From Candidatus Aegiribacteria sp. MLS_C (lineage in GTDB: Bacteria > Fermentibacterota > Fermentibacteria > Fermentibacterales > JCC-6): 64,000 nucleotides of DNA. The stretch lies in NCBI GenBank assembly GCA_002030045.1, contig LQBI01000034.1, positions 41,157-105,156 on the forward strand, in the 5' to 3' direction. The notes beneath the pieces are model-generated. The model was given only the letters and a program-made list of their open reading frames with translations. It was not told the DNA's origin and did not search any database. Numbering within the stretch: the stretch's first letter is position 1; the number at the start of each line of letters is the position of its first letter. Below, one piece after another: positions 19,138-38,834 of the stretch. Made by a program: the position numbers and the translations under genes.

Positions 19138-19590
19138 ATGGATACCTCGGGATCGGAACTGAGCGTCCTGTCCGCTGCCTTGAAAGGGGCCGGTATACGG
19201 ATGACCCATCAGCGCATCGAGGTATTCAGTGAACTGCAGGCTTCCCACGGCCACCCCAGCGTGACTGAGATCTACGAGGGAGTCAGGAAAAGGCTTCCGA
19301 GCATATCACCCGATACGGTATACAGAACTCTCAGGCTCTTCTCGGAACTCGGGCTGATAATCCCACACAGTTCCACGTCAAGCGTAACGAGGTTCGACGT
19401 GAACGTGCACGAGCATCATCATTTCGTATGTACAAGGTGCTCCAGGATCTTCGATTTCACGAGTTCTTCCATCGACCCACTCGAGGTTCCCAGGGAAGCC
19501 GAATCATTTGGTGAGGTCCAGGGGGTCCAGCTGGAAGTAAGAGGCATCTGCAGGGATTGCCTTCGAAGAGAACGAACGCAGGAGGAATGA
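19138..19590 (+). CDS. perR: Fur-family regulator, PerR-like
   Basis: Winged-helix region RMTHQRIEVF...SPDTVYRTLRLF, metal site HHHFVCTRC...CRDC. Immediately upstream of katG. Confidence 0.8.
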   Translation: MDTSGSELSVLSAALKGAGIRMTHQRIEVFSELQASHGHPSVTEIYEGVRKRLPSISPDTVYRTLRLFSELGLIIPHSSTSSVTRFDVNVHEHHHFVCTRCSRIFDFTSSSIDPLEVPREAESFGEVQGVQLEVRGICRDCLRRERTQEE

Positions 19591-21813
<2,223 letters not shown>

Positions 21814-21863: not shown

Positions 21864-22032
21864 GATCACGGATACCCGAGTGCTCATGAACCGCGCACGA
21901 CCCGGGTCGATCCCGGAACCATATCTCATTCCACCGGAAGAATTCGCTCATTCTTCTCCCTGCTTGACTTGCTGGGCGGTCATGAACCGGTATGTTAGAG
22001 TCTGAAGGGAACATGGGAGAAAGAAGGTAGCC

Positions 22033-22683
22033 ATGGGCTTACCGGGATTCTTTCGGCGGATCGTAACGGGATACCTGCTTCTGGCGCTGTCCGCGGTCTG
22101 CATCTCATCGGAGATCCGTCCCCTCGATGGCAGAGCGGATGAAAGGGACTATCTCATAAGTGTCGAGTACCACTATTGGATGTACACCTATGAGTTGCAT
22201 TACGATGATGAGGTCCCATGCTGGGCCACCGATCTGGGGAACTACCAGGGCGTGATGTTCAGGCTAGAGGACTTCTTTCTATCTCCCCCCTATGAAACAG
22301 AGCTGAGTCATGCTGAATTCTGGTTCTACCATCACCCGTTGTATCCATGGGGTACCGATGAATTCCAGGCTGAGGTCTGGTGGGGAGAGGAAACAGCGCC
22401 ATTCTATCAGTTGGATGAACAGCAGGCTCTGGCGCTTCATTACAGCCCCACCATTGTAGATTTTGACCCATATTTATTTGTGTACGACTGCTTTTGGGTG
22501 ATCGTGGATACGGAACAGTCGGCAGGCGGCGGGCCGTGGCTTCTTGCGGATTCCTCGGGAAATTTCACAGGTGCCTTCCACAGCTTCTACAGCGATGATT
22601 TCATCGTCTGGCACTGGCTCTCCGGCTCCGGTCTGGGTCTGGACACCGAAACATGGGGCTGCATCAAGGGTCTCTACAGGTAG
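22033..22683 (+). CDS. Secreted hypothetical protein ending in a TWGCIKGLYR motif
   Basis: Signal peptide ...YLLLALSAVCISS; aromatic-rich. Confidence 0.6.
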   Translation: MGLPGFFRRIVTGYLLLALSAVCISSEIRPLDGRADERDYLISVEYHYWMYTYELHYDDEVPCWATDLGNYQGVMFRLEDFFLSPPYETELSHAEFWFYHHPLYPWGTDEFQAEVWWGEETAPFYQLDEQQALALHYSPTIVDFDPYLFVYDCFWVIVDTEQSAGGGPWLLADSSGNFTGAFHSFYSDDFIVWHWLSGSGLGLDTETWGCIKGLYR

Positions 22684-22848
22684 GGATTCGGGGTCGTACG
22701 GTCATCAATGACCATGCGACTCTGGTTACGATTATTGAATTATCAACGTATTAGCATCTACTAATCCACATCATGCGATCTCAGATCATTGGTTGCTATT
22801 GACTCACGGAAAGCTTTGAAGTATCTACAATGTAGATACGGAGGTTAT

Positions 22849-23085
22849 ATGAAGACAACAGTCAGAAAATGGGGAAACAGCCTTGCGGTTCGAATACCGA
22901 AGGCCATTTCGGAAGAACTCAGTATTGATGAGACAACCGTACTGGAAATGGTAACCAGGGATGGAATGCTTATCCTTGAGCCCAAGCACAGGTACCGACT
23001 AAAGGATATGCTCAATGAGATCACTGATGAGAATCTGCACGGCGAAATCGATACCGGCACGAGAACAGGTGTTGAGGAATGGTAG
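22849..23085 (+). CDS. mazE: MazE/AbrB-family antitoxin
   Basis: MKTTVRKWGNSLAVRIPKAI (SpoVT/AbrB swapped-hairpin motif). GGAGG lies 3 nt upstream of the ATG at 22849. Confidence 0.8.
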   Translation: MKTTVRKWGNSLAVRIPKAISEELSIDETTVLEMVTRDGMLILEPKHRYRLKDMLNEITDENLHGEIDTGTRTGVEEW

Positions 23086-23420
23086 TGACGATAGAACCAC
23101 CAGAACAAGGTGATCTTATCTGGCTGTCCTTCGATCCACAGAAGGGACATGAGCAGCAAGGCAGAAGGCCGGCACTTGTGCTGTCTCCCAGAGCATACAA
23201 CGAAAGAATCGGACTGGCGTTGATGTGCCCGATAACCAGCAGGAAAAAGGGTTACCCCTTTGAAGTCGATCTGCCAGACGATTGCCCAGTCTCTGGAGTA
23301 ATTCTCTCGGATCAGGTTAAAAGTCTGGACTGGAAAGCAAGAGAAGCTGAAATTGCCGGAACCGCTCCACAAATAGTACTCTCAGAGGTCCTGCAGAAGC
23401 TCTACACCTTACTTGCATAG
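23079..23420 (+). CDS. mazF: MazF/PemK-family mRNA interferase toxin
   Basis: GDLIWLSFDPQKGHEQQGRRPALVLSP...CPITSRKKGYPFEV. Overlaps mazE by 7 nt. Confidence 0.85.
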   Translation: MVVTIEPPEQGDLIWLSFDPQKGHEQQGRRPALVLSPRAYNERIGLALMCPITSRKKGYPFEVDLPDDCPVSGVILSDQVKSLDWKAREAEIAGTAPQIVLSEVLQKLYTLLA

Positions 23421-23538
23421 CTCAAAAGCCATCTGAACTGCAATCCTCATGGATATATGGCGGGCCATCTGCATTGCAGTTGGAACACGTTAGTAGTTCA
23501 TCTTGATATTATGAACAGGCTACCCGATTACGAACTGA

Positions 23539-24738
23539 TCAGGATCCAGTGAAGATGTTCACATACCTCTGGTACATGAATCTCCTGTTTCTTTTTCGAC
23601 CTGTGATCTCACTCAGTATGCCCGTTTCAACGAAACGCTGAACAAGGTCATTTGCGGTTGGGTACGAAGTACCGATCAAAGACCTGATATCATGAACGGA
23701 TACAATAGGCACTCTGTAGAGCAACTCTAGAACTCTATGACCGTTCCCTGCAGCACGACCGAACTCCGCAGTGATGATCCTCCGATCTGTTTCCCGCAGA
23801 GCAATTATCCTTCTAGCGGTCTCCGTCGCCTGGATACTGACTTCAACGATGCCGGTAAGAAAGAATACCAACCAATCCTCCCATGCCCCCCGTTCTCGGA
23901 TATCCTGTAACCTTTCGTAATACTCCATACGGTGCTTCTTCAGATAGTACGAGAGGTAAAGCACCGGTTTGCTCAGTACCTGCTTCTCACATAACAGGAA
24001 TGTAATGAGAAGCCTGCCTATCCTTCCATTCCCGTCCAGGAAGGGATGGATGGTCTCGAACTGCGCATGTGCGAGGCCGATGTTCACGAGCAGAGGCAAC
24101 CGTGAATCATCATGAAGGAACTTCTCCAGATCACCGAGGAGCCCTGTGACCTCCTCCGGAGGGGGAGGAACAAATGTCGCCTCCGCAAGAGTGCAGCCTC
24201 CGGGACCTATCCAGTTCTGGCTCCGGCGGAGTTCACCGGGAGTAAGTCGGGACCCTCTCACTCCCTCCATAAGTTTGTGGTGGATCTCCCGGAAGAGCCT
24301 GACCGAAAGTGGAAGCTCCTTGAGTCGCTCAAGACCATAGTTCATGGCACGGACATAGTTGATCACTTCGCCCACGTCCTTTGGCCGCTGAGGATCGAGT
24401 ATCCTTGCCTCTGCCTCCAGTATGTCCTGAAGGGAGCTCTGAGTCCCTTCGATCTGGCTTGATAGCACCGCTTCCTTCCGAATGTACATGTAGACGAAAA
24501 GATCGGGATCAGGGAGAGTGAGTATTGAACCATCCAGCCTTCCAAGCGCCCTGTCGGCTTTCGATAGCAGCTCCTGCAGGATACCAGCTATCCTGATCGG
24601 CGGTTCTGGAGGAAGAGGATCAGGTATAAAAGCGGAGTATCCGGTTGATTGAAGAGCATATCTTCCTGAACGGGTCGACTGTGAACTCTGTTCATCATGC
24701 TGCACCAATTCAGATCCTCCCTTTAATACACAACACAT
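23539..24738 (-). CDS. Fic-family protein (AMPylase-type)
   Basis: Fic motif HPFLDGNGRIGRLL plus a C-terminal winged-helix-like region. Exact start uncertain. Confidence 0.85.
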   Translation of the reverse strand: MCCVLKGGSELVQHDEQSSQSTRSGRYALQSTGYSAFIPDPLPPEPPIRIAGILQELLSKADRALGRLDGSILTLPDPDLFVYMYIRKEAVLSSQIEGTQSSLQDILEAEARILDPQRPKDVGEVINYVRAMNYGLERLKELPLSVRLFREIHHKLMEGVRGSRLTPGELRRSQNWIGPGGCTLAEATFVPPPPEEVTGLLGDLEKFLHDDSRLPLLVNIGLAHAQFETIHPFLDGNGRIGRLLITFLLCEKQVLSKPVLYLSYYLKKHRMEYYERLQDIRERGAWEDWLVFFLTGIVEVSIQATETARRIIALRETDRRIITAEFGRAAGNGHRVLELLYRVPIVSVHDIRSLIGTSYPTANDLVQRFVETGILSEITGRKRNRRFMYQRYVNIFTGS

Positions 24739-24747
24739 AGGCCCTTC

Positions 24748-24770
24748 ATATTAAGGTTTAACCTTAATAT
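24748..24770. promoter_or_regulatory. Perfect 23-bp palindrome upstream of fic (candidate operator)
   Basis: ATATTAAGGTT-T-AACCTTAATAT with 11-bp arms, 10 nt upstream of the longest fic ORF start. Confidence 0.45.
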
Positions 24771-24830
24771 AGGCTCATTCGAATTGCCTGTGCAAGGTTT
24801 CACCATTGTGAACACGGGGTCGGAACACGG

Positions 24831-24976
24831 GGTCGTACGTTACTTCGGGTCACTTACAAATGACTTTTCTCCGGAATATGCAGATCAGACGATCTACTGG
24901 TCCTGGTTTTCCTAGCAACGGCGGTTTTCATATGCGGCAAATTTCTTCTGTAAGTAACCCGAAGTAACGTACGACC
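24831..24976. repeat. 146-bp MITE-like element with 28-bp terminal inverted repeats
   Basis: GGTCGTACGTTACTTCGGGTCACTTACA (24831-24858) pairs with TGTAAGTAACCCGAAGTAACGTACGACC (24949-24976) at 27/28. No ORF inside. Confidence 0.5.
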
Positions 24977-25282
24977 ACGGCTGCCGACACTGGCTGCGGA
25001 ACCTTTGCCTGATCGGTGAGGGTGCCCTCATCGGTGGTGTAGAGCCTTAGTGGTTCTTAATTATAATCGTGGCGGGTCGCCTGCATCGCAGTTGGAACAC
25101 AATCCTCGCAAATCTAAATAGTCTCATGGACCCTTTTATCATCACAACTGAAGCTCTGAAAAGTGAAACTACTTAGTACTTAGTAAATGATATCCTTCTG
25201 GTTTGCGGAAATCCGATAGATCATTCTGCTATTAGATATGTGCACATAGTAATGAGGGATTGTATCAAATCCTACATCTGTT

Positions 25283-25347
25283 TATACAACAACAATCTAG
25301 GGGACGATTGGTTCTGAATTATAATCATGGCGGAGGGGGTGGGATTC
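25283..25347. repeat. 65-bp direct repeat, distal copy (contains a 20-nt tRNA-Ser 3' end remnant)
   Basis: 62/65 identical to 27661-27725. Includes TGGCGGAGGGGGTGGGATTC. Confidence 0.8.
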
Positions 25348-25451
25348 ACTTCGACTCGCCCGTGAATCTGGCGAATCACGTTCTCGCTCAGTGTAAACTC
25401 ACCATTTCAGTCTTCGACTGAAGGTCCGAATCACCGGCTTCATTACGAAAG

Positions 25452-25480
25452 AAAAACCCCCGAAGAAGGGGGTTTCACTT
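25452..25480 (-). terminator. Orphan intrinsic-terminator-like hairpin
   Basis: AAAAACCCCC-GAAGAA-GGGGGTTT. The U-tract is better on the minus strand (GGGGGTTTTTCTTTC), but no gene reads into it. Confidence 0.4.
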
Positions 25481-25629
25481 TCGTGGCGGGGCATCTTAAC
25501 ACATTATCGAACTATCTTCAATCAATGTAACCCAGTATTCAATGCTATTTCCTTTCTTTGAAGGAAGAGCGATATTACTTTCCAGTATCAGAACTAGGGG
25601 GTGCTGGTTCTGCATATCTGGGGGTTACA

Positions 25630-27519
25630 ATGAAATTCAACATCGTATCTAAGCTACTACTTGCATTACTGATTATCATGAAGATAACTATGGCAGAGGA
25701 ATATGGAACTATTGAGGGGGTGGTCACTGCTCCTTTCGGTCAACCTCCGTCTCAGAACTGGATGATTGGTGTAACCAGTGGTGGGTACGGAAGCTCTACA
25801 GATTCTGAAGGATATTACTCCTTCAGCCTTCCAGAAGGATGCTACGATGTGCGGACGTATTTCATGGGAACGGACACAACTGTGAGCAACGTTCATGTCT
25901 ATCCGGATTCAACAACCGAGTTGAATATCATGATAATTGGGGATCTTCGCAGGTATGCCTGGTCCGAAGTCTCTGATCCTCTAAGTAATATCGAAACAAG
26001 TGAAGTCCAGATAGCCCTAGAAACTGATGAAGCTGCATTGCCAGAATACTTCGGACTATTCTTCAAAGGAGAGCACTGTTACTTTGATTGGATTTCGGAT
26101 TACTCGATCCGTGCTGATCTTCCTCTGAATAATGAGTACTTGAGCTGGTACACTCCTGAAATGGCGGAAAGGAACATAATCCTTGGAAGCGAAGATCCGG
26201 ACACTACACTGCGTATCATCGATAACCGCCGGTACGCACGTGTTCTTGAGAAGATTAATAACCTTCCCACACTCATGGGAATCAATGGAATAAGCGACGA
26301 GATGACCAGGAACGGTTTTCGGATGGATCGTACAGTCATCGATCTGCTTGAGTATGGGTATCCTGCACTCGAGGATTTTGGTCTTGTGACAGCTAAAGTC
26401 ACTTTTCCTGAAAGTCGTCATTGGAGGGTGCTGCTTGTCTTCAAAGACAAGGCGGTTGTATTGCTTGATTCAGGGCAGCAACAGACGTTTGATTTCGGCA
26501 TGGACATCAGAGAATGCGTAGTCTCCAGGAACGGCAGATACATTATAGCATATGAGGCAATAGGTAGGGAATACAGGGGAGGAGATGCCCTGTTCCTGGA
26601 TACGGAGACTTCACGGTCTATCGTTTTCGATCCCAGCCCCCAGAGGATAAACACCGACCCATACATATCTTCTCATGGAGTTATAATCGGTAGGCATTAT
26701 TACACTCAGGGTCACGTATCCGATAGTGGTGAGTTTGCTCGGCTCGATTTCTCAAGGGAGTTTCTGTACTTCGATTCCGATTTGTCAGTTCTGTGGACTA
26801 TCGATCTCGAAGAATATGGCATCATGCCCGATTGTGTGAACTACCTTACTCCTGATGGTTCTATCGTCCTTCTGTTCGGTATCCTGAATCAGGAACAAGT
26901 ACTGAGTTTTTTTGATCAATACTCCAATCAGCTTGAAGTTCTAACGCTTCATGGTGATCTCCGAGATATGCTATACCAGGATGAGAAAGGGCCTATAGCT
27001 GTAAATGACTTATCAACAGTAATGCTGATCGCCAGCAATATAAGCTCTGGTCCTTTGCAGTATCCGGGACCGGGAACACTTGTAGTTGACCTGGAATCAA
27101 GAAGCATAGTACAGCACTGGCAGAGTTCCTCTTATACCAAGTTTCCCTGTCTGTCACCAGATGGAACCTACGGAGCTCATATTGTCCTTTCGTCTCCTGC
27201 TGATCATCAGACATATGAGATCAGGAATATTCCCGATAACGAAACAGTATATTCATATGAACTCGAGCAAGACGACATATGGACACTTCGAAGATTTAGT
27301 GGATTGGCTGAGAATGGGAATTCACTTATTCGCTTGGTTACACGTTCAAGGGCCAGACACGTTCTCATGGACAGTGAAGGATCATTACTGTGGGTTTCTG
27401 CTACCAGAGCAATCTTCCCGTCTTCGATCGGATGTACGGAACTAGCAAGAGACGGTTTGGCACTTGCTTATCTTGATGACAACTATCTGAATATTCTGGA
27501 GTTTTCACAGTCTGAATAA
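25630..27519 (+). CDS. Secreted protein: CarboxypepD_reg-like N-domain plus beta-propeller-like region (hypothetical)
   Basis: Signal peptide MKFNIVSKLLLALLIIMKITMA, then GTIEGVV...TDSEGYYSFSLPEGCYDV. Low G+C; start moved to the ATG at 25630. Confidence 0.7.
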   Translation: MKFNIVSKLLLALLIIMKITMAEEYGTIEGVVTAPFGQPPSQNWMIGVTSGGYGSSTDSEGYYSFSLPEGCYDVRTYFMGTDTTVSNVHVYPDSTTELNIMIIGDLRRYAWSEVSDPLSNIETSEVQIALETDEAALPEYFGLFFKGEHCYFDWISDYSIRADLPLNNEYLSWYTPEMAERNIILGSEDPDTTLRIIDNRRYARVLEKINNLPTLMGINGISDEMTRNGFRMDRTVIDLLEYGYPALEDFGLVTAKVTFPESRHWRVLLVFKDKAVVLLDSGQQQTFDFGMDIRECVVSRNGRYIIAYEAIGREYRGGDALFLDTETSRSIVFDPSPQRINTDPYISSHGVIIGRHYYTQGHVSDSGEFARLDFSREFLYFDSDLSVLWTIDLEEYGIMPDCVNYLTPDGSIVLLFGILNQEQVLSFFDQYSNQLEVLTLHGDLRDMLYQDEKGPIAVNDLSTVMLIASNISSGPLQYPGPGTLVVDLESRSIVQHWQSSSYTKFPCLSPDGTYGAHIVLSSPADHQTYEIRNIPDNETVYSYELEQDDIWTLRRFSGLAENGNSLIRLVTRSRARHVLMDSEGSLLWVSATRAIFPSSIGCTELARDGLALAYLDDNYLNILEFSQSE

Positions 27520-27660
27520 TCGATAAGCTCTGTACACCATTAGAAGAATCATTGATCAGATTGTATTCGAACCCTGTATACTATTGTTGTGTATGTACAT
27601 GTGGTATGAGCATGTCCAGATCACGCTGATGCAAGAATTGTATCGAACCACACATATATC

Positions 27661-27725
27661 TATACAGCAACAATCTAGGGGACGATTGATTCTGAATTGT
27701 AATCATGGCGGAGGGGGTGGGATTC
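27661..27725. repeat. 65-bp direct repeat, tRNA-proximal copy
   Basis: Spans 45 nt downstream of tRNA-Ser plus its last 20 nt. Confidence 0.8.
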
Positions 27726-27796
27726 GAACCCACGGACCCCAAAAAGGGATCAACGGTTTTCGAGACCGTCCCGTTCAACCGCTCCGGCACCCCTCC
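27706..27796 (-). tRNA. tRNA-Ser (anticodon CGA), encoded CCA
   Basis: Reverse complement folds as GGAGGGG/CCCCTCC acceptor, ACGGT-CTCGAAA-ACCGT anticodon arm, long variable arm and GGGTTCGAATCCC T-arm. 91 nt. Confidence 0.9.
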
Positions 27797-27970
27797 GCGG
27801 GGAGGCAAAATATGACGGGAAGTAGAAGTTTCGGCAAGTGTTAGCAGCTTCTGGGCTATTTACATCGGGAACCAAAAAACACATTGATTCACTACACTTT
27901 GGCAGGACTGGTGTTCTATTGTTGTGGTCATATATTTCTGGAAACACAGAAATCCTTAAGGAGAATACAA

Positions 27971-28792
27971 TTGAATAATCCATTAGCGTTCTTTGCATTG
28001 CTGGCATCGGCGCTTTTCATGACCGCCTGCCTGCCGGAGGAACGAACGCCGGGAATAGGGCCCGAGTTCAACTCCGTCCTTCTCGTGGACACCGGCCCCA
28101 CACCGGGCGACTTCATTCAGGGCGACCTCTCGGTCTTCACTCTGAGGTGGACACCAGCCGAGGACGCTGAGTGGTACGATATAAGGATTTCTCCGGATCA
28201 CATCACTGATTCCAACTGGGATCACGCTCTCCGGATCGATTCCGTCCCGGCGCAGGATACAACGGAAATGGTGGTCTATGTAGAGGTCCAGCCGGAAGTA
28301 TTCGAGAACACATGCATCTCCTGCGGCCTCTGCGTGGACGCCTGTCCCCAGGACGCCATGAGCCTCGTGGGAGGAAAGGCCGTCATCGACCTGGAGAAGT
28401 GCACCGCCTGCGGAGAATGCGTTGCAGTATGTCCTGTGAACGCAATCACCGACAGCAGATTCGGTCAGGCCTACTACTTCGCAGTAAGAGCCATGAGTTC
28501 CGGCAACACATGGTCCGAGCTCATAACGACGGACAGCAGGTACAGGCTTCGGTACATGAACTACGAACCCTGGTGCGGCGACTGTGCCTACGAGTGCTAT
28601 ATCCTGCTGGATTCCTGCGGCCCCGGCTGTCCGGTGGACGCCATATGGTACACTCCTGACGGAGGCACCCCCGGAGTGGATTCCGGGCTGGTGCATATCG
28701 ACTACGATCTTTGCATCGACTGCGGCCAGTGCTTCATACAGTGCCGCCAGTACGGTCTCTGGTCAATAATGAAGGAGGTGGTGGAAGAATGA
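27971..28792 (+). CDS. Exported lipoprotein with FN3-like region and two 4Fe-4S dicluster-type domains
   Basis: In-frame TTG at 27971, 7 nt after AAGGAG, gives [20 protein letters not shown] (lipobox). Motifs [32 protein letters not shown]...CGPGCP and [11 protein letters not shown]. Confidence 0.75.
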
Positions 28793-29283
28793 GGGCACTG
28801 ATCACTGCAGTACTGCTCATCTCGGCATCCACGGGTTTCTGTTCGCTTACGTTCTCTCAGGGTTCCGGGGGCGGGATCGTCGAATGGGAACCCTTCGAGA
28901 GTGAATACCGGTCGCTGGTGTTGAGGGCGTCCGACACCGAATACGATGCCGGTGACACGGACTGGGGAGAGGTCCTGGCGACCATCGTACCCGATGAAAA
29001 CGGGGTCTTCCCGTCATCCGTACAGTTGCCCGCAGCCTTCTTCGTTGACCGGGACAGGTGCATTTCCGACGGGATATGCGTTTCACAGTGCCCAACCGGG
29101 GCGATCACCCTCGATCCGGAGGGGAAGGCAGTCATCGATTCCGACCTTTGCATAGCCTGCGGCATATGCGCCGCTGTTTGCCCTGTTAATGCGATATTTG
29201 CGCCCAATGCCGGGCTTCACTACGGACTGTTCGGTGTTACGGGTGAGGGGGCGGAGGAGTTCATCCAGGGGTCCGGGGAATGA
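28789..29283 (+). CDS. Exported ferredoxin-like protein (one Asp-substituted and one canonical 4Fe-4S motif)
   Basis: ATGA overlap with the previous gene. Signal [17 protein letters not shown]. Motifs [12 protein letters not shown] and [12 protein letters not shown]. Confidence 0.75.
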
Positions 29284-29516
29284 CCCGCAAGGCAGCCGTA
29301 GTAACCGCCATTCTCTTCATACTTGCAGCGGCGGCCATCGCCCAGACACTGGTCTACAGGGTGGACCGCTCCGTCTGCACCGGATGCGGGGACTGCGCCG
29401 CCGTCTGTCCCGTAGACGCTGTGGAGATCATAGACGGGAAGTCCCATATCGATCCCGAGAAGTGCATAGGATGCGGCTTCTGCCAGGGGGTGTGCACCTA
29501 TGATGCGATACGCTAG
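29280..29516 (+). CDS. Exported 2x[4Fe-4S] ferredoxin-like protein (78 aa)
   Basis: ATGA overlap. Signal [23 protein letters not shown]. Motifs [12 protein letters not shown] and [11 protein letters not shown]. Confidence 0.75.
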
Positions 29517-29748
29517 GTACATCGTCGCCGCGCTGGCGGGGATAGTCCTCATGCTGGCCTGCGAGGGACCCCTGGACTCCACCCAGCTCATGGTAAACAC
29601 CGACGACTGCATCGGCTGCGGTGAATGCGTGGAGGTCTGTCCCTACAACGCCATCGAGATCATAGGCGGAGACGCGGTCATTGATCCCTCCCTTTGCCAC
29701 TTCTGCTACAGGTGCGTCGAGCAGTGCCCGGAAGGAGCAATATACTGA
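29500..29748 (+). CDS. Lipoprotein 2x[4Fe-4S] ferredoxin-like protein (82 aa)
   Basis: Signal with lipobox [21 protein letters not shown]. Motifs CIGCGECVEVCP and CHFCYRCVEQCP. Confidence 0.75.
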   Translation: MMRYARYIVAALAGIVLMLACEGPLDSTQLMVNTDDCIGCGECVEVCPYNAIEIIGGDAVIDPSLCHFCYRCVEQCPEGAIY

Positions 29749-30953
29749 TGAGATACATCATTCCGTTCCTTCTGGTATTCCCACTCGCCGCCTCCGCCGT
29801 CACCCTGGACAGCTGGCTGAACTTCACCACAGGCGGCGACAGTCTGTCCCCGCAGCTCGGCACCCTGGACATCGGGGGCCTTCTGCAGGGCAACGGCTGG
29901 GGAGTCCTTCTTCAGGAGAAGCACGTGAGCATGGATACCACCGGAGTGGTGGACAGGGTTCTCAACAGTTACAGCCGGACGGACCTGGACATCAGCATCC
30001 AGGCCGGCCCTGTAAGGATCAACCCGGACCTCGTATGGACGGTGGACCTGGGCGACGATGAGCCGGAGCTGGTCCTGCCCGTACAGGGCGGCATAGCCTA
30101 CAGGGAAGGGTCCCTGAGACCCGGTCTTGGCATCGAGGCACAGGTCAGCGAGAACCTCAAGTTCTTCGCGGACGGCTTCTACTGGAGCCGGGACATCGTG
30201 CACGAGGACGGCAGCGACCTCGGCTGGACGGATACCCGCTTCAGCGGCGGGGCCACCTGGGACTCCCCGTGGATAGCTTCCCTGACGGTGGCGGGTCTGA
30301 CCCACAACACCGTTGCGGACTACATAGACTACGACAACACCTGGAACCGTTACGACGTGAGCGTCGCCCTCCATCCCTCTACACTGCCCAGGAACATGTA
30401 CGTGACTGGAGAGGTCACCTATTCCGTCTACGACGGCAGGGATTTCCTGGACGCCGAGATAGCCGACAGGCTCACCTCCAGGGTGCGGCTGATGCAGATG
30501 GGAATCATACCGTCCATTTCGGTGAACACGATTTTCGAGTCCTCGGTGGATTTCGACGGAGAGACGGTGAGGAACGCCTGCACCGCCCTGGAGTCCAGGC
30601 TGGTCTGGAGGTTCCTCAGGGACCGGGAAGTCCCATCCGCGGTCATCCTCTCAGGGCGGCTCACTCGTTCGTCCATAAGGACCGAGAAGGCTGGTATCTT
30701 CTCCAGGATCAACATTTACCGCGGGCTTTCCCTGCTGGCCGAGGCCGAGGCCAGGGTAACCCCCACCTCTGTGGCCGGGGCAGGTCCAGACAGGCAGAGG
30801 TACGTGTTCGGACCTGGCCTGGAGTACCAGTTCGGGAACAGGGCCCGTATCTGGGGTATTGTGGAACAAGAGAGGACCGATTTGACCCGCAACGAGAACT
30901 GGTGGCGCATCAGGTCGGGCCTGGAGTTCTACCCGGGAACCGTGAGCTTCTGA
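29748..30953 (+). CDS. Outer-membrane beta-barrel protein (hypothetical, 401 aa)
   Basis: TGATG overlap with the previous gene. Signal MRYIIPFLLVFPLAASA. Amphipathic beta periodicity and C-terminal ...LEFYPGTVSF (terminal Phe). Confidence 0.65.
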   Translation: MRYIIPFLLVFPLAASAVTLDSWLNFTTGGDSLSPQLGTLDIGGLLQGNGWGVLLQEKHVSMDTTGVVDRVLNSYSRTDLDISIQAGPVRINPDLVWTVDLGDDEPELVLPVQGGIAYREGSLRPGLGIEAQVSENLKFFADGFYWSRDIVHEDGSDLGWTDTRFSGGATWDSPWIASLTVAGLTHNTVADYIDYDNTWNRYDVSVALHPSTLPRNMYVTGEVTYSVYDGRDFLDAEIADRLTSRVRLMQMGIIPSISVNTIFESSVDFDGETVRNACTALESRLVWRFLRDREVPSAVILSGRLTRSSIRTEKAGIFSRINIYRGLSLLAEAEARVTPTSVAGAGPDRQRYVFGPGLEYQFGNRARIWGIVEQERTDLTRNENWWRIRSGLEFYPGTVSF

Positions 30954-30999
30954 GAAGCCTGCGGGCAATTCCCGCAGGCTCCCATGAGAGGATGTCCTA

Positions 31000-32136
31000 T
31001 TGTTTGAGGGCTTCGGGACCGGACTGACCCTGGGACTCGCCACCGGTACCGCCTGCCTGGCCTCGTGCGGGCCCATATACGCATCCTACCTCATGGCGGA
31101 GAAAAGGACCGGTCTGCAGCCTCTCTGGGTGGTGCTGAAACTGAACGCGGGCAGGTTCCTGGCCTACGCCATCTTCGGAGCCATCGTGGGCTACCTGGGC
31201 GGAAGCATCCCCGTATCCGTCAGGGTGCCCATGGCGCTCTCCGGATACATCCTCTTCTCCATATACCTGCTAATGTCCGTTGTCCGCGTACGCAAGACAT
31301 GCACCGGATGCCATGCCGGCAGGTTCATCAGGATAACTCGCAGTTCCTTCCTTCTCGGTGTGCTCACCGGCTTCTCCATCTGTCCTGCCTTCCTGATAGC
31401 CCTCACCAGGGCCTTCGATTCCAGCGGTCCGCTGAACGGCATGATGATGTTCACCGGCTTCTTCGCCGGAACCACAGTATACATGCTTCCCTTCGCCCTC
31501 TTCGGTCTTCTCACGATGAAGGACTGGATAACCAGGGCGGCGAGGGTCATAGCGGTGGTCGTCGCCGTCTACTTCATGGCCGTGGGGATACGGGGCCTGG
31601 CGGGATGGATCACAAGGCCGGAGGTGAGGGAGACCGGCGCCAATGCCGCCGTGGAGGACTCCCACCTTACCGGGGACGAGGCTGGATCGATATTCGCCAT
31701 CGAGGATGCGGATACCCTCTATGTGTTCGCCTTAACCGACGACCCTACCGATGCCGGCACTCGGCTGGCGCAGGACATGCAGGCGGATTTCCTTCCTCCC
31801 CGTCGAGTTGTCGAGGCTTCCGCGGAGGACTGCACAGAACGGATACTTACCATACCCCAGCTTTCCGCCGTCATAGTCCCTGCATGGGTCGATCCGAGGT
31901 ACGGAGCGGAACTCGAGCCCTGGCAGGAGGGACTGGCGGCCCTGGTGCGGGAGAGGCGGCTAAGGGCTTTCGCCGTGGAGTACCAGCCATACTGCTCCGA
32001 CAGGTACAGGGGCATCGAGTCCTTCCTGGAGAGGTACAGTTTCAGGACCGATCCCGATTCGGGTTTCGTTTTCCTGATGCTGAACCCCCTGGCCTGTTCC
32101 CCTGCGGAGTGTTCGACCTGCGACATTCCCCATTAG
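31000..32136 (+). CDS. Polytopic inner-membrane protein, DsbD_2/CcdA-like, with about 170-aa C-terminal extra domain
   Basis: TTG start after GAGAGG. TM1 motif GTACLASCGPIY resembles the HCxxMCGP signature of the DsbD_2 family. About 6 TM helices; tail ends CSPAECSTCDIPH. Confidence 0.6.
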   Translation: MFEGFGTGLTLGLATGTACLASCGPIYASYLMAEKRTGLQPLWVVLKLNAGRFLAYAIFGAIVGYLGGSIPVSVRVPMALSGYILFSIYLLMSVVRVRKTCTGCHAGRFIRITRSSFLLGVLTGFSICPAFLIALTRAFDSSGPLNGMMMFTGFFAGTTVYMLPFALFGLLTMKDWITRAARVIAVVVAVYFMAVGIRGLAGWITRPEVRETGANAAVEDSHLTGDEAGSIFAIEDADTLYVFALTDDPTDAGTRLAQDMQADFLPPRRVVEASAEDCTERILTIPQLSAVIVPAWVDPRYGAELEPWQEGLAALVRERRLRAFAVEYQPYCSDRYRGIESFLERYSFRTDPDSGFVFLMLNPLACSPAECSTCDIPH

Positions 32137-32175: not shown

Positions 32176-33384
32176 GTGAAGATGTTCGAGAAGGCTTCCA
32201 GCGGTTATTCCGGACCGAAGATCAAATCCGACTGCCTGGTCACCTATGAGAGTTCCGCCGATGGTCTTGCCGTGGCCATCACGGGAGAGGCTGACACCGG
32301 GCCCCTGGAGGTCGCAGTAAGGCGCACCGCCTCCAGGATGGGTATAGATACGGGAAGAGTGACGGTGGAGAACTGCGGAGCGGCCCCGTTCACCGCGGCG
32401 GCGCGCTTCGAGGCTTCGGCCAGGAAGGTTCTCGGCGACGCTTTTCCACTTCCTCCGGCCGTGCGGACGCCGGAGCCTTCGCTCCGCGACAGGCCCAGGA
32501 GGTCCAGGCTTTACGTTCCGGGCAACATGCCCAGGTTCATCGAGAAAGCGCTGGGATCCGGCGCCGACGGTATAATCCTGGACCTGGAGGACAGTATATC
32601 GCCGGACCGCAAGCAGGAGGCCCGAATAATGGTGGCCCACGCCCTGGCCACCATGGACTTCGGCGACATGGAGGTCATGGTCCGCATCAACCAGGGGGAT
32701 GCGGGGCGTGAGGACCTTGAATGGATCGTCCCGCAGCCCGTGCAGCACATACTGATCCCCAAGGTCGAGATACCTGAGCAAGTTATCGAGGTCAGCGGTC
32801 AGATCGGCGGCATAGCGGCGCGGTGCGGCCGCGATCCCCTGATCTGGCTTATGCCAATCATCGAGAGCCCCCTGGGGATTTTCAACGCCCTGGACATAGC
32901 CAGGTCCGTCCCCGGGAGGATGGCGGCGCTCACCCTCGGGCTCCAGGATCTCTCCGCGGAGATGGGTGTCGTGCCCACCACCGAAGGAACCGAGAGCTTC
33001 ACCGCCAGGAGCCTGGTGATACTGGCCGCCAGGGCGGGAGGCCTGCAGCCCATCGATACGGTTTACGCGGACGTGAAGAACGAGGAGGGGCTGCGGGAGT
33101 CCGTCAGCAGGGCCGGGGCCCTGGGCTTCGTGGGCAAGGGCTGCATCCATCCCGACCAGGTCCCGGTGATAAACGAGGGATTCCTTCCCGACAGGGACTC
33201 CGTGCACAGGGCGAGGAAGATAGTAATGGCCATGGAGGAAGCTACAAGGAAGGGGCTTGGAGCCGTCGCCCTTGGCTCGAAGATGATAGACCCGCCGGTG
33301 GCGAGGCAGGCCCAGGTGCTGGTGGACAACGCGGTCAGGCTTGGCCTCATCTCCGTTGACTGGCGCAGCGAGGAGGAGGAATGA
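32176..33384 (+). CDS. Fusion of citrate-lyase ACP-like (CitD) domain and citryl-CoA lyase beta-subunit-like (CitE/HpcH) domain
   Basis: The N-terminal 95 aa align to the CitD pattern (IKSDCLV..., ...ENCGAAPFTAAARFEA). The rest is CitE-like (RSRLYVPGN...DGIILDLEDS...). Confidence 0.7.
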   Translation: MKMFEKASSGYSGPKIKSDCLVTYESSADGLAVAITGEADTGPLEVAVRRTASRMGIDTGRVTVENCGAAPFTAAARFEASARKVLGDAFPLPPAVRTPEPSLRDRPRRSRLYVPGNMPRFIEKALGSGADGIILDLEDSISPDRKQEARIMVAHALATMDFGDMEVMVRINQGDAGREDLEWIVPQPVQHILIPKVEIPEQVIEVSGQIGGIAARCGRDPLIWLMPIIESPLGIFNALDIARSVPGRMAALTLGLQDLSAEMGVVPTTEGTESFTARSLVILAARAGGLQPIDTVYADVKNEEGLRESVSRAGALGFVGKGCIHPDQVPVINEGFLPDRDSVHRARKIVMAMEEATRKGLGAVALGSKMIDPPVARQAQVLVDNAVRLGLISVDWRSEEEE

Positions 33385-36574: not shown

Positions 36575-38230
36575 TCAGTGGGGCGGGAACTCCAGATCCC
36601 GGGTCTCGGGGTCGTCGCAGGACCTGGGAAGACGCTTGCGGGTGATTCGTCTCCAGAGGCCTATCCTGCCCAGGAAGCTGAGTATGGCGCCGTAGAAGCA
36701 CAGGTACTTGCAGAAGAACCTCGGGAAGAAGATCAGTACGGTTATGGTGATAATGGCGATAGTTAGCGAGCCGACGATGAAGAACGAGAAGATCGTGTGG
36801 AAGGGATCGATGCTGCAGAAGAAGGCCTGTGGCTGGAGGTCGTGGAAGTACCCGCTGCTGGCCAGGATGATGAACCCGAAGAAGAGCAGCGCCAGCAGAT
36901 ACCTGAAGCCGGACAAGACAAGGTGGACCTTGTGGGGGAACCTGGGAGGCCTGGGAACATGCAGCTTGCCCAGCAGGTCCTGAAGGGCGCCGAAGGGGCA
37001 GACCCAGCCGCAGAAGACCCTGTCGAAGAAGGCGCTCCAGAGCATCGGCAGTATGAGCACCCCGATGCCCAGTATGCCCAGGAATGCAAGCCCCATGGGC
37101 AGGAACGCATACTGCACCAGGCCGATGGGACAGTAGCACCCCTGTACCAGGAAACCGAGCACCGCGAGGGAGATGATCTGGACGGTCATGTGGGCCAGCT
37201 TCCTCTTTTTCCTCTGCGCTCTGCCGAGCCCGCAGAGGCGGTTCTTGAGGATGGTGGACGCGAGGAGCAGGACCGCGGTCACGACCAGTATTATGAGCGT
37301 CCTGGTCATTCCTCCGCCGGAGGGGTTCCTGCAGCCGCTCCATCCCATGTAATGAGCGCACAGACGGTTCTCGGGAGTCGGGCACGCGGCTTCGGGCGGC
37401 AGCCCCAGAGGGCATCCGCCTGCAACCTGAACCAGGTTGTAGGCGCGGCCATGGACATTCATCCGAAGGGTAGAGGCGGTATCCCTGGGCGGCACTCCGG
37501 GATTGTCGCAGAAGGAATCGGAATTCGCGTCGGTATACAATGCGCATGAAGGACTGTCCTCAGGACAGGCCTCCTCGGGGGTGAAACCCAGGGGACATGC
37601 GACGAGTGGAGAGCTTACCTCCTCTATCGTGATGGTGTCCACGAAGACGGAGTCCTCCGAGATCTCTATCTGTATCTCCTCGGTGATCCTGGATGAATCC
37701 GTCAGCCTCTCGTGCAGTTCCCAGACGATGCAGGGGTAGCCGGCAACGGTCTCGCCCCTGGGGTCAACGCAGTAGAGGTTCCCCTGGTCGTTGCTGAGCA
37801 CCACGATCCTGTCCCCTATCGTGGCCTGCCGCAGGTCGCCCTCCGGATGCTCCGGTGATGCGCCGGCGGGGGCAGCGTCCTCCGGTTCCTCCTCGAGGAT
37901 GTCTTCCGGAAGCTCCGGGACCGATAGGGCCGAGGTGTCCGGGTCCGGTTCCTCGAACGCGGCCTCGGGAAGCGTATCGGAGAACGGCTCTTCGATGGTT
38001 GTGTCTGCATGAATGATGGAGGTGTCCTGGTCCGCTTCCTCGACTCCATCGGCGTCCGTTCCGGACGGCTGGGGACCCGGGTTGTCGCAGAGCGCGTTCC
38101 CGTCGTCATCGGTGTAGAGAGCACAGGTGGGGTTCTCCTCCGGACATGCCTGGTCAGGAGTGAAGCCCAGAGGACACTGGCCAAGGCAAAGAGCTGCAAA
38201 GACAAGAACCGCGACCTCGGAAATCCTCAT
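36575..38230 (-). CDS. Membrane Fe-S protein (NapH/NosR-type Fer4_5 motifs) with Cys-rich repeat ectodomain
   Basis: Signal peptide, three CPLG-x2-P-x3-CP...C...C-x-NP repeats, then TM region with FCGWVCPFGALQD and FFCKYLCFYGAIL. Confidence 0.7.
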   Translation of the reverse strand: MRISEVAVLVFAALCLGQCPLGFTPDQACPEENPTCALYTDDDGNALCDNPGPQPSGTDADGVEEADQDTSIIHADTTIEEPFSDTLPEAAFEEPDPDTSALSVPELPEDILEEEPEDAAPAGASPEHPEGDLRQATIGDRIVVLSNDQGNLYCVDPRGETVAGYPCIVWELHERLTDSSRITEEIQIEISEDSVFVDTITIEEVSSPLVACPLGFTPEEACPEDSPSCALYTDANSDSFCDNPGVPPRDTASTLRMNVHGRAYNLVQVAGGCPLGLPPEAACPTPENRLCAHYMGWSGCRNPSGGGMTRTLIILVVTAVLLLASTILKNRLCGLGRAQRKKRKLAHMTVQIISLAVLGFLVQGCYCPIGLVQYAFLPMGLAFLGILGIGVLILPMLWSAFFDRVFCGWVCPFGALQDLLGKLHVPRPPRFPHKVHLVLSGFRYLLALLFFGFIILASSGYFHDLQPQAFFCSIDPFHTIFSFFIVGSLTIAIITITVLIFFPRFFCKYLCFYGAILSFLGRIGLWRRITRKRLPRSCDDPETRDLEFPPH

Positions 38231-38336: not shown

Positions 38337-38834
38337 TTAAATGAACGAGGCCTTGATCTCACCGAAGGTTGAGCTGCTGAGGTCCAGGGTCCCGTTGATC
38401 TTCAGGTGCGGCACATTCTCGTTGCTAACGGAAGCCTGCTGCTCGTTGTAGAGACCGAAGATGCAGCGGGTGCCGGTACCGGCCCAGCTCCAGGAATAAA
38501 GTGAGCCTGCACCCGAAGACCATTCAACCTCGATCAGGAGGTTCTCGTCGCCGCTGTACCAGTAGGGGGTGTCCAGCGTCACGTCGAACCAGCCACCCAC
38601 GGGGACCACCGGTGTGATGTAGGGGGAATCGCTGAGGACAAGCGTCCTGGTCCCGGGAATATAGTTGTCATCGAAAGTGGTGCCGAGTTCATCGCCGGCG
38701 CAGAGTCCGATATAGACCTTCAGATCGTTGAACGTTCCCTGATCCTCGGGGGAGGGGAACCTCCTCCAGGAGAAACTCTCTATCTCGATGGCGTCGCCTA
38801 TCTCACTCGCGAGCACTACCACCTGGTAGCGCAT
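38337..38834 (-). CDS. Hypothetical beta-rich protein ending in TFGEIKASFI; may extend upstream through an in-frame TGA to 38954
   Basis: 165-aa ORF from MRYQVVV. The same frame upstream encodes a signal peptide (38954-38847) separated only by the TGA at 38846-38844. Confidence 0.6.
   Translation of the reverse strand: MRYQVVVLASEIGDAIEIESFSWRRFPSPEDQGTFNDLKVYIGLCAGDELGTTFDDNYIPGTRTLVLSDSPYITPVVPVGGWFDVTLDTPYWYSGDENLLIEVEWSSGAGSLYSWSWAGTGTRCIFGLYNEQQASVSNENVPHLKINGTLDLSSSTFGEIKASFI

Follow-up and report, generated by a model that had tools for sequence, protein, structure and literature searches.

We analysed a stretch of 64,000 nucleotides (the window) from contig LQBI01000034.1 of Candidatus Aegiribacteria sp. 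MLS_C, a member of the Fermentibacterota, and we focus here on six tightly coupled plus-strand open reading frames (ORFs), g1-g2-g3-g4-g5-g6 in that order, at positions 27971-32136 (Table 1). An earlier note on this DNA had described them as one unit encoding four exported ferredoxin-like proteins, an outer-membrane barrel and a DsbD_2-like membrane protein, and had proposed an iron-sulfur redox conduit across the cell envelope. Its six ORFs and all their junctions were reproduced by the ORF listing and by direct translation, and independent gene calls on two metagenome contigs with an identical locus gave the same six genes. Pfam places Fer4 families in g1-g4 (E-values of 1e-16 to 1e-20) and DsbD_2 in g6 and gives no significant match for g5, and NCBIfam yields only generic ferredoxin matches below its cut-offs and none for g5 or g6. 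The c-type haem motif CxxCH is absent from g1-g6 and occurs once in the whole window, in a Zn-ribbon protein; no ORF anywhere in the window is rich in CxxCH, in agreement with the statement that no multihaem cytochrome is encoded here. A promoter and terminator scan returned nothing informative.

One genome per GTDB species was scanned, which gave 80 loci (denoted by L and a number); these were annotated with profiles from the window proteins. The genes g1-g6 stand in the same order in every Fermentibacterota locus with enough sequence, about 55 species representatives in all, with g6 identity going down to 47%. Conservation of synteny was a check that the earlier note had proposed, and an arrangement that recurs in about 55 species of the phylum is far beyond chance. 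The named homologues of g5 and g6 come from Candidatus Aegiribacteria, Fermentibacter and Sabulitectum, all within the Fermentibacterota (formerly Hyd24-12). In four loci (L009, L035, L057 and L059) the g1 lipoprotein-ferredoxin gene is present in tandem copies. Fermentibacteria are strict anaerobes and obligate fermenters without a respiratory chain, found at sulfidic and methane-rich sites (PMC5763382, PMC5030696), and for this reason an external electron sink would be useful to them.

Together, g1-g4 place about ten [4Fe-4S]-type sites behind export signals. Fer4 modules are indeed present in all four products, as had been claimed, but the paired CxxCxxCxxxCP motifs ascribed to each of them are not uniform. 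The g1 protein has two 2x[4Fe-4S] modules, equivalent to four clusters and 16 ligand cysteines (Fer4 families, E = 2.5e-19), and the second of these modules is atypical (CxxCxxxC...CP). In g2 a signal peptide and a short N-domain precede a single two-cluster module (E = 5e-18) whose first motif is CxxDxxCxxxCP, in g3 the module (E = 4e-16) follows an N-terminal signal or anchor helix and its second motif ends in CT rather than CP, and g4 is a lipoprotein ferredoxin with two clusters (E = 1e-19). Although overall identity among the 48-52 orthologues is only 35-45%, just two of the 40 Fe-S ligand positions vary, g2 position 94 and g4 C47, and the other 38 are invariant. The 16 ligand cysteines of g1 and its lipobox Cys20 are conserved in 48/48 orthologues, seven ligand cysteines of g2 and all eight cysteines of g3 in 52/52, and C47 of g4 is cysteine in 51/52. 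Position 94 of g2 is aspartate here and in five other species and cysteine in 46/52. Aspartate in place of the second cysteine of a cluster motif is a known variant and classically marks a cluster that is Asp-ligated or 3Fe-convertible. Because the ligand and lipobox cysteines are conserved across these 48-52 orthologues, g1-g4 are by all indications real cluster-binding modules of the bacterial 2x[4Fe-4S] ferredoxin type, two of them lipoproteins. The N-domain of g1 aligns with the fn3 repeats of proteins from related loci at an hhalign E-value of 2e-4 and a probability of 45%, a weakly FN3-like character that is suggestive only.

The N-termini bear directly on where these modules reside. By sequence, g1 and g4 are lipoproteins, g2 has a signal peptide and g3 has a signal or anchor helix. 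The lipobox of g1 has the form ...[AS][ASG]C-L, with its cysteine present in 48/48 orthologues, and that of g4 the form ...[AGS]C, with Cys21 present in 52/52; a cysteine also follows the hydrophobic stretch of the g4-like proteins in Fibrobacterota, Cloacimonadota and further related loci. Both g1 and g4 have positively charged n-regions and acidic residues after the helix. The statement that these signals lack a twin arginine holds within the window, where g3 has TRK and g1, g2 and g4 have no paired basic residues, but it is lineage-specific. Among the 52 Fermentibacterota g3 proteins, 15 have RR, 15 have RK or KR, 11 have KK and 11 have neither, and paired basic residues are found in 0/52 of the g4 proteins. 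The Fibrobacter/Chitinispirillaceae orthologues of g3 carry canonical motifs of the twin-arginine translocation (Tat) pathway (MNRRTILR, NRRSLLK and RRRTILK), and in one locus (L063) the lipoprotein g4 has a canonical twin-arginine motif too. The export route of the ferredoxin modules, judged from these signals, differs between lineages.

Fusions in related loci extend this picture. In a Fibrobacter metagenome-assembled genome and in Chitinispirillaceae, a signal peptide and five or six fn3 repeats (E = 1e-47 to 1e-51) lead to a terminal Fer4 dicluster in proteins of 824 and 1045 aa, and a 738-aa fn3 protein in the same position at L092 gives only a faint Fer4 match. Cloacimonadota encode a 182-185-aa ferredoxin with a type IX secretion system (T9SS) sorting domain at its end (Por_Secre_tail 36 bits, FlgD_ig 34 bits), and all small Fer4 proteins of L087-L092 carry signal or lipoprotein leaders. 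On account of the invariant lipobox cysteines, the Tat motifs on some g3 proteins and the fn3 and T9SS fusions of relatives, the ferredoxin modules are very probably extracytoplasmic, which agrees with the four exported ferredoxin-like proteins of the earlier note, and in some lineages they are probably surface-exposed. If instead the N-terminal helices were N-out signal anchors, the ferredoxin domains would lie in the cytoplasm and the barrel and g6 would be unrelated neighbours. Anchoring of cytoplasmic polyferredoxins through an N-terminal helix is known from RnfB-type proteins, and g3 has no obvious cleavage site. We nevertheless find this arrangement highly improbable, given the invariant lipobox cysteines of g1 and g4, the positive n-regions and post-helix acidic residues of the same two proteins, the Tat motifs, fn3 arrays and T9SS tails in relatives, and the translational coupling to the barrel gene, with synteny in about 55 species.

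The g5 protein was modelled with AlphaFold2 from a 36-sequence alignment as an all-beta protein of 20 long and two short antiparallel strands, with a mean predicted local distance difference test score (pLDDT) of 83.8. It has a signal helix, short loops and no plug domain, and it ends in ...GTVSF. Foldseek comparison of the model with the PDB retrieved only large outer-membrane barrels, among them TonB-dependent transporters, MtrB (6r2q_B), Occ porins and ushers. MtrB was found at rank 2 with a template-modelling (TM) score of 0.46, and all matches have TM scores of about 0.45-0.5, values that for a predicted model we read as generic fold likeness and not family membership. Indeed, no Pfam or NCBIfam family matches link g5 to the MtrB/OmbB family, and an exhaustive HMMER profile search of 1.84 billion representatives recovered 23 proteins, none of them outside the family, marking g5 as an orphan family; all 49 homologues that carry a source name are from Fermentibacterota. 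We are confident in predicting a wide, plug-less outer-membrane beta-barrel of about 20-22 strands, and the barrel of the earlier note is thereby upheld. Since about 22 strands in 401 aa would leave no plug, the barrel probably needs a partner to occlude it, and, by geometry and by analogy with MtrA, which fills MtrB, the lumen of roughly 3 nm expected of an unplugged ~22-strand barrel could be filled by a 6-kDa dicluster ferredoxin.

The genome scan also returned g6-like genes in Fibrobacterota and Cloacimonadota, at 29-45% identity, the Fibrobacter loci coming from metagenome-assembled genomes. In these loci two to four small signal-peptide Fer4 genes precede the g6-like gene, the last of them encoding a lipoprotein wherever it is readable, and the ferredoxins are followed by a signal-peptide gene of 395-467 aa whose product in most cases has an aromatic or aliphatic residue at its C-terminus. 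The core order of small exported ferredoxins, barrel-sized gene and g6 is found in Fermentibacterota, Fibrobacterota, Cloacimonadota and unassigned metagenome contigs.

A further membrane protein, of the Fer4_5 (NapH/NosR) type, is encoded downstream of g6 on the opposite strand and possesses three periplasmic four-Cys repeats (CPLGxxPxxACPxxxxxC...C). A Fer4_5 gene occurs in every Fermentibacterota locus that includes about 5 kb of downstream sequence, always on the opposite strand and 0.4-5.5 kb from g6, accompanied by one to three copies of a gene for a 155-170-aa protein, while the genes between Fer4_5 and g6 vary. From this co-occurrence we regard the Fer4_5 protein of the window as a probable partner of the operon, one that was overlooked in the earlier note. 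The gene directly after the g6-like gene in Fibrobacterota encodes a Fer4_5 (NapH-type) membrane protein of 508-529 aa that has several Fer4 motifs on the cytoplasmic side. A NapH-like polyferredoxin likewise comes immediately after g6-like in other relatives, and loci with a NapH-like polyferredoxin include L063, L072-77, L082, L086 and L089-92; the gene neighbours in L082 and L083 provided no functional clue. Longer operons around further g6-like homologues from metagenomes add NuoE/NuoF-type, GltD-like or Rnf-type genes (Table 1). The RnfB-less cluster of L088 could represent a variant form of Rnf that passes electrons to the outside, since the flavin of RnfG faces the periplasm. We had considered the 830-aa gene upstream of the Cloacimonadota operons as a further exported ferredoxin and rejected it, as it encodes a cytoplasmic GltD/DPD-like flavoprotein. 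NAD(P)H-linked modules joined to exported ferredoxins and a barrel are to be expected of an electron route across the envelope and would not be predicted by metal uptake or by a purely structural role.

The same partners can be read as parts of a redox chain that stays in the periplasm, in which g1-g4 would be carriers akin to NapG, NrfC or HybA, serving either a periplasmic reductase or oxidase whose genes lie elsewhere or a soluble substrate (polysulfide, for instance); g5 would be the porin that admits the substrate. A NapH-like partner combined with Tat signals on part of the g3 proteins is reminiscent of NapGH, the barrels show no detectable homology across phyla, and the Occ/OprD-type porin matches of the g5 model equal its MtrB match. 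However, a catalytic subunit (molybdopterin, hydrogenase, haem or copper) was not found in or beside any of about 90 loci, the fn3 stalks or T9SS sorting domains on ferredoxins of relatives point to the cell surface, and an unplugged barrel of ~22 strands is far bigger than small solutes require. On this balance we consider a purely periplasmic chain distinctly unlikely.

Table 1. Genes and other features of the window and of related loci
Feature	Location	Positions	Strand	Remarks
g1	window	27971-28792	+	273 aa; TTG start with AAGGAGA ribosome-binding site ahead
g2	window	28789-29283	+	164 aa; ATGA overlap with g1
g2 residues 91-94	window	29058-29069	+	first cluster motif, includes Asp94
g3	window	29280-29516	+	78 aa; ATGA overlap with g2
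g4	window	29500-29748	+	82 aa; 17-nt overlap with g3
g5	window	29748-30953	+	401 aa; TGATG junction with g4
g6	window	31000-32136	+	TTG start; 46-nt gap after g5
Fer4_5 (NapH/NosR-type) membrane protein	window	36575-38230	-	Pfam Fer4_5, E = 2.9e-14; signal peptide, CxxxCP
165-aa protein	window	38337-38834	-	no Pfam match; accompanies the Fer4_5 gene (phmmer across loci; association only)
citE-like gene	window	32176-33384	+	citrate lyase beta / HpcH; acyl carrier protein-like N-terminal extension; 40 nt after g6
Low-G+C block	window	22000-27800		G+C 45-49%, about 60% elsewhere
653-aa ORF	window	25558-27519		in the low-G+C block; G+C at third codon positions 0.44
tRNA-Ser(cga)	window	27706-27796	-	end of the low-G+C block
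Region of the 725-aa ORF	window	19138-21813	+	N-terminus catalase-peroxidase (KatG)-like by eye; small Fur/PerR-like ORF ahead
g6-like neighbourhood	L064	378-5140		see text
g6-like neighbourhood	L069	3806-12481		see text
g6 ORF of 785 aa	L044	7169-9526		see text
Rnf-type genes	L088	9024-13197		RnfG, RnfC, RnfD and RnfE/A-type; no RnfB; directly after the core genes
Additional genes	L087, L092 (one genome)			beyond ferredoxins, barrel-sized gene and g6-like: NapH-like; 788-793-aa NuoE/NuoF-type fusion; GltD-like
Additional gene	L089, L091			NapH-like
Reduced locus	L090			one Fer4 gene, g6-like, NapH-like; no clear barrel gene
Flavoprotein gene	Cloacimonadota L070, L074, L085			cytoplasmic Fe-S flavoprotein, 830 aa, GltD/DPD-like; abuts the operon or g6-like alone
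Selenocysteine machinery	L087	1-2841; 16285-17095		
Selenocysteine machinery	L089	12166-15800		
Selenocysteine machinery	L069	12846-13781		

The last gene of the unit, g6, matches Pfam PF13386 (DsbD_2) over residues 9-192 with an E-value of 1.7e-20. In the AlphaFold2 model six helices are followed by a confident alpha/beta domain (about residues 224-365, with pLDDT about 90 over residues of about 230-360) and a disordered, Cys-rich tail. Comparison across three phyla shows four invariant cysteines, C19 and C23 of helix 1, C104 of a basic cytoplasmic loop and C128 of helix 4, and the prolines in C23-G-P and C128-P are likewise invariant. CcdA and DsbD have this arrangement, an inverted six-helix repeat with Cys-Pro in its helices 1 and 4. 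In CLASCGP, which the earlier note took as a signature of the DsbD_2/CcdA type, the spacing of the two cysteines is CxxxC and not CxxC. Over 44 homologues the putative cytoplasmic loops contain on average 11.0 lysines and arginines, compared with 1.3 in the opposite loops, and this bias therefore predicts an N-out/C-out topology that places the extra domain in the periplasm. This C-terminal domain is rich in acidic residues (25.5 Asp+Glu versus 9.2 Lys+Arg), and its Cx4CxxC tail is restricted to Fermentibacterota; in other phyla the domain has no cysteines. A Foldseek search of the PDB with the g6 model found no significant match (best E = 0.07), and by this fold search the periplasmic domain is not thioredoxin-like. 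A profile search against PDB sequences likewise gave nothing, with no CcdA or DsbD chain matched even at E-values up to 10. Two side observations concern this family: stand-alone DsbD_2 paralogues of 205 aa (L071 and L081) adjoin Fib_succ_major lipoproteins and give no functional clue, and the g6 ORF of L044, at 785 aa, may be fused to the gene downstream or reflect read-through into it.

What g6 does in the unit is suggested in part by its surroundings in two other loci, L064 and L069, which belong to close relatives and count as effectively one lineage. There a g6-like gene lies among genes for NifU_N (IscU-like), MinD/CbiA-Fer4 ATPases, radical SAM, 4HBT thioesterase and Mrp/NUBPL proteins; a NifX-like domain is present and a barrel is not. 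Judged from translations alone, TrxB-like and thioredoxin-like ORFs are close to the g6-like gene of L069. By its gene content this neighbourhood is one of Fe-S biogenesis and thiol redox. A role for g6 as a CcdA-like biogenesis factor for the exported ferredoxins, supplying them with reducing equivalents or with clusters, is one that we rate just short of evenly balanced. We prefer it because the NapH-like and Rnf modules of relatives offer other means of transmembrane electron transfer and because most signals of the phylum are not of the Tat type. In its favour, too, g6 is the only component that stays constant at the level of the protein family across the related loci. Electron entry through g6 at the inner membrane, as the earlier note had it, is in our view unlikely and was the weakest part of that proposal: a NapH-like partner is linked to the operon, and the Fe-S scaffold and thioredoxin-type context fits maturation at least equally well.

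The same neighbourhood, with its NifU_N, Mrp/NUBPL and MinD-Fer4 genes, can also be taken to mean that the system moves Fe-S clusters or iron, with the exported proteins shuttling them from sulfidic surroundings, g5 acting as an uptake pore and g6 as an importer or exporter of clusters or metal. The membership of g6 in a transporter superfamily, its four invariant cysteines, which are suited to ligating a cluster or a metal, and the sulfidic habitat of the hosts (PMC5763382) accord with such trafficking. Yet the modules are dicluster ferredoxins of the canonical electron-transfer kind, all of whose ligands are conserved, the NADH-oxidising NuoEF/GltD-like and Rnf modules of related operons suit electron flow and not metal uptake, and there is no TonB box, plug or ABC importer. 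We regard trafficking as improbable.

The reading towards which we lean, modestly, is that the six genes and the nearby NapH-like protein encode a haem-free, Fe-S-based route for electrons across the envelope of a strictly anaerobic fermenter. In the scheme we envisage, electrons from cytoplasmic NAD(P)H or ferredoxin would pass to a membrane Fe-S module, NapH-like here and in relatives NapH-like together with NuoEF/GltD-like proteins, an RnfB-less Rnf or a DPD-like flavoprotein. They would then hop via the anchored ferredoxin g3 and the lipoprotein g4, together with g2, and would reach the FN3-like lipoprotein g1 on the outer face, traversing the outer membrane within the barrel g5 or beside it. 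The end acceptor would be external (sulfur, a mineral, humics or a partner cell, for example), and electron flow could also be in the reverse direction. In this scheme the ferredoxins would be loaded after export by the general secretory (Sec) pathway, and g6 would provide them either with reducing equivalents, as CcdA does, or with Fe-S clusters or cluster precursors; acquisition of the clusters after export is suggested because the ferredoxins of the phylum mostly lack Tat signals.

Several points weigh against such a route. The operon in this window is itself without a cytoplasmic donor module, and the Fer4_5 protein encoded nearby does not have the cytoplasmic polyferredoxin domain of its counterparts in relatives. 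The barrel-sized genes of Fibrobacterota and Cloacimonadota have no detectable homology to g5 (hhalign probability 0.7%), and their shared position may reflect analogous recruitment or just fast divergence. The Fe-S-assembly context of g6 is known from effectively one lineage (L064/L069). To our knowledge there is no maturation route for Sec-exported Fe-S proteins, and we know of no precedent for low-potential, oxygen-labile clusters at a cell surface. More tentative still, and on the doubtful side, is the fullest form of the proposal, in which the conduit would consist wholly of [4Fe-4S] modules exported by the Sec/lipoprotein route, would acquire its clusters in the periplasm via a DsbD_2-type exporter of reductant or clusters, and would be widespread in uncultured fermenters and syntrophs of the Fibrobacteres-Chlorobi-Bacteroidetes (FCB) group, here Fermentibacterota, Fibrobacterota and Cloacimonadota.

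Among known systems, the cluster works most like the porin-cytochrome conduits (MtrCAB of Shewanella; Pcc/Ext of Geobacter), yet it fails their defining features, namely haem motifs and an MtrB-family sequence. Both combine exported redox proteins, a large plug-less barrel (20-26 strands) and a redox lipoprotein at the surface (putatively so for g1) in one operon, both would have the task of moving electrons across the outer membrane, and MtrB is among the best fold matches of g5. Here, however, c-type haem motifs are missing and [4Fe-4S] clusters would serve as cofactors, g5 is unrelated in sequence to MtrB/OmbB, and the hosts are quinone-poor fermenters of the FCB group as opposed to respiring Proteobacteria or Desulfobacterota. 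With NapGH and NosR the cluster shares a Fer4_5 membrane protein with CxxxCP and exported poly-[4Fe-4S] ferredoxins, some g3 proteins being Tat-signalled like NapG. It differs from them in having no nitrate or N2O reductase, in its several small ferredoxins (two of them lipoproteins) and its outer-membrane barrel, in the mostly non-twin-arginine signals of the phylum, and in the periplasmic Cys repeats that the local Fer4_5 protein has in place of a cytoplasmic ferredoxin domain.

The likeness of g6 to CcdA and DsbD (System II; CcdA-ResA) lies in the six-helix inverted repeat with Cys-Pro in helices 1 and 4, in being encoded beside exported, Cys-rich apoproteins that it could serve and, for DsbD, in the predicted N-out/C-out topology with a periplasmic C-terminal domain. 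In contrast to them, g6 matches DsbD_2 and not DsbD, has an extra cysteine in helix 1 and an invariant cysteine in a cytoplasmic loop, and its clients would be ferredoxins rather than cytochromes. In the extracellular DMSO reductase DmsEFAB of Shewanella an Fe-S protein, DmsB, reportedly works outside the outer membrane and is fed through a barrel; there, however, export of the Fe-S subunit is by Tat, together with a molybdoenzyme, and a decahaem cytochrome forms the conduit. The flavin-based extracellular electron transfer system (FLEET) of Listeria and lactic acid bacteria is a non-cytochrome route by which the NADH electrons of a fermenter leave via lipoprotein-bound cofactors, but it is Gram-positive and dependent on quinone and flavin, with no outer membrane, barrel or Fe-S modules.

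Other features of the window and of the related loci lie outside this system. We tried the citE-like gene and the Zn-ribbon gene after g6 as members of the unit and rejected them, as they are absent in L004 and many other loci; the citE-like gene, which follows g6 in some genomes (L003) and not in others (L004), is probably outside the unit. The low-G+C block ends at tRNA-Ser(cga), and both contigs with an identical operon break at this tRNA, about 220 nt upstream of g1, which suggests that the block is a strain-variable island inserted there; the 653-aa ORF within it has no NCBIfam match. The KatG-like ORF is unexpected in a presumed strict anaerobe. Genes for the selenocysteine machinery (SelA and SelB, with a SelD-like ORF recognised by eye) adjoin related operons in three loci.

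A literature search on Fermentibacteria, the DsbD_2 family, non-cytochrome conduits and ferredoxins that are exported, periplasmic or extracellular did not turn up any account of this kind of system, and the Fermentibacteria genome papers contain, in their main texts and one supplement, nothing on these genes or on Tat. The remark in the earlier note that it knew of no such system thus stands, and we regard the cluster, on sequence and structure prediction alone, as a strong candidate for an envelope redox system of a new kind. In bacteria with two membranes, extracellular electron transfer has been explained almost wholly by multihaem cytochromes threaded through barrels. If the proposed route is real, surveys of extracellular electron transfer that count haem motifs have missed whole phyla of fermenters and syntrophs, and since these organisms are dominant in anaerobic digesters, methane seeps and sulfidic sediments, models in which they dispose of reductant only as H2 or formate would need revision. 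In its fullest form the proposal would also represent a new class of machinery for extracellular electron transfer and the first extracytoplasmic pathway of Fe-S maturation. Moreover, the assumption that Fe-S proteins are loaded in the cytoplasm and leave it folded via Tat becomes directly testable, because the same ferredoxin orthologue is Tat-signalled in one phylum and Sec/lipoprotein-signalled in another, always beside a Cys-rich transporter that in other loci has IscU-like and Mrp-like genes around it.

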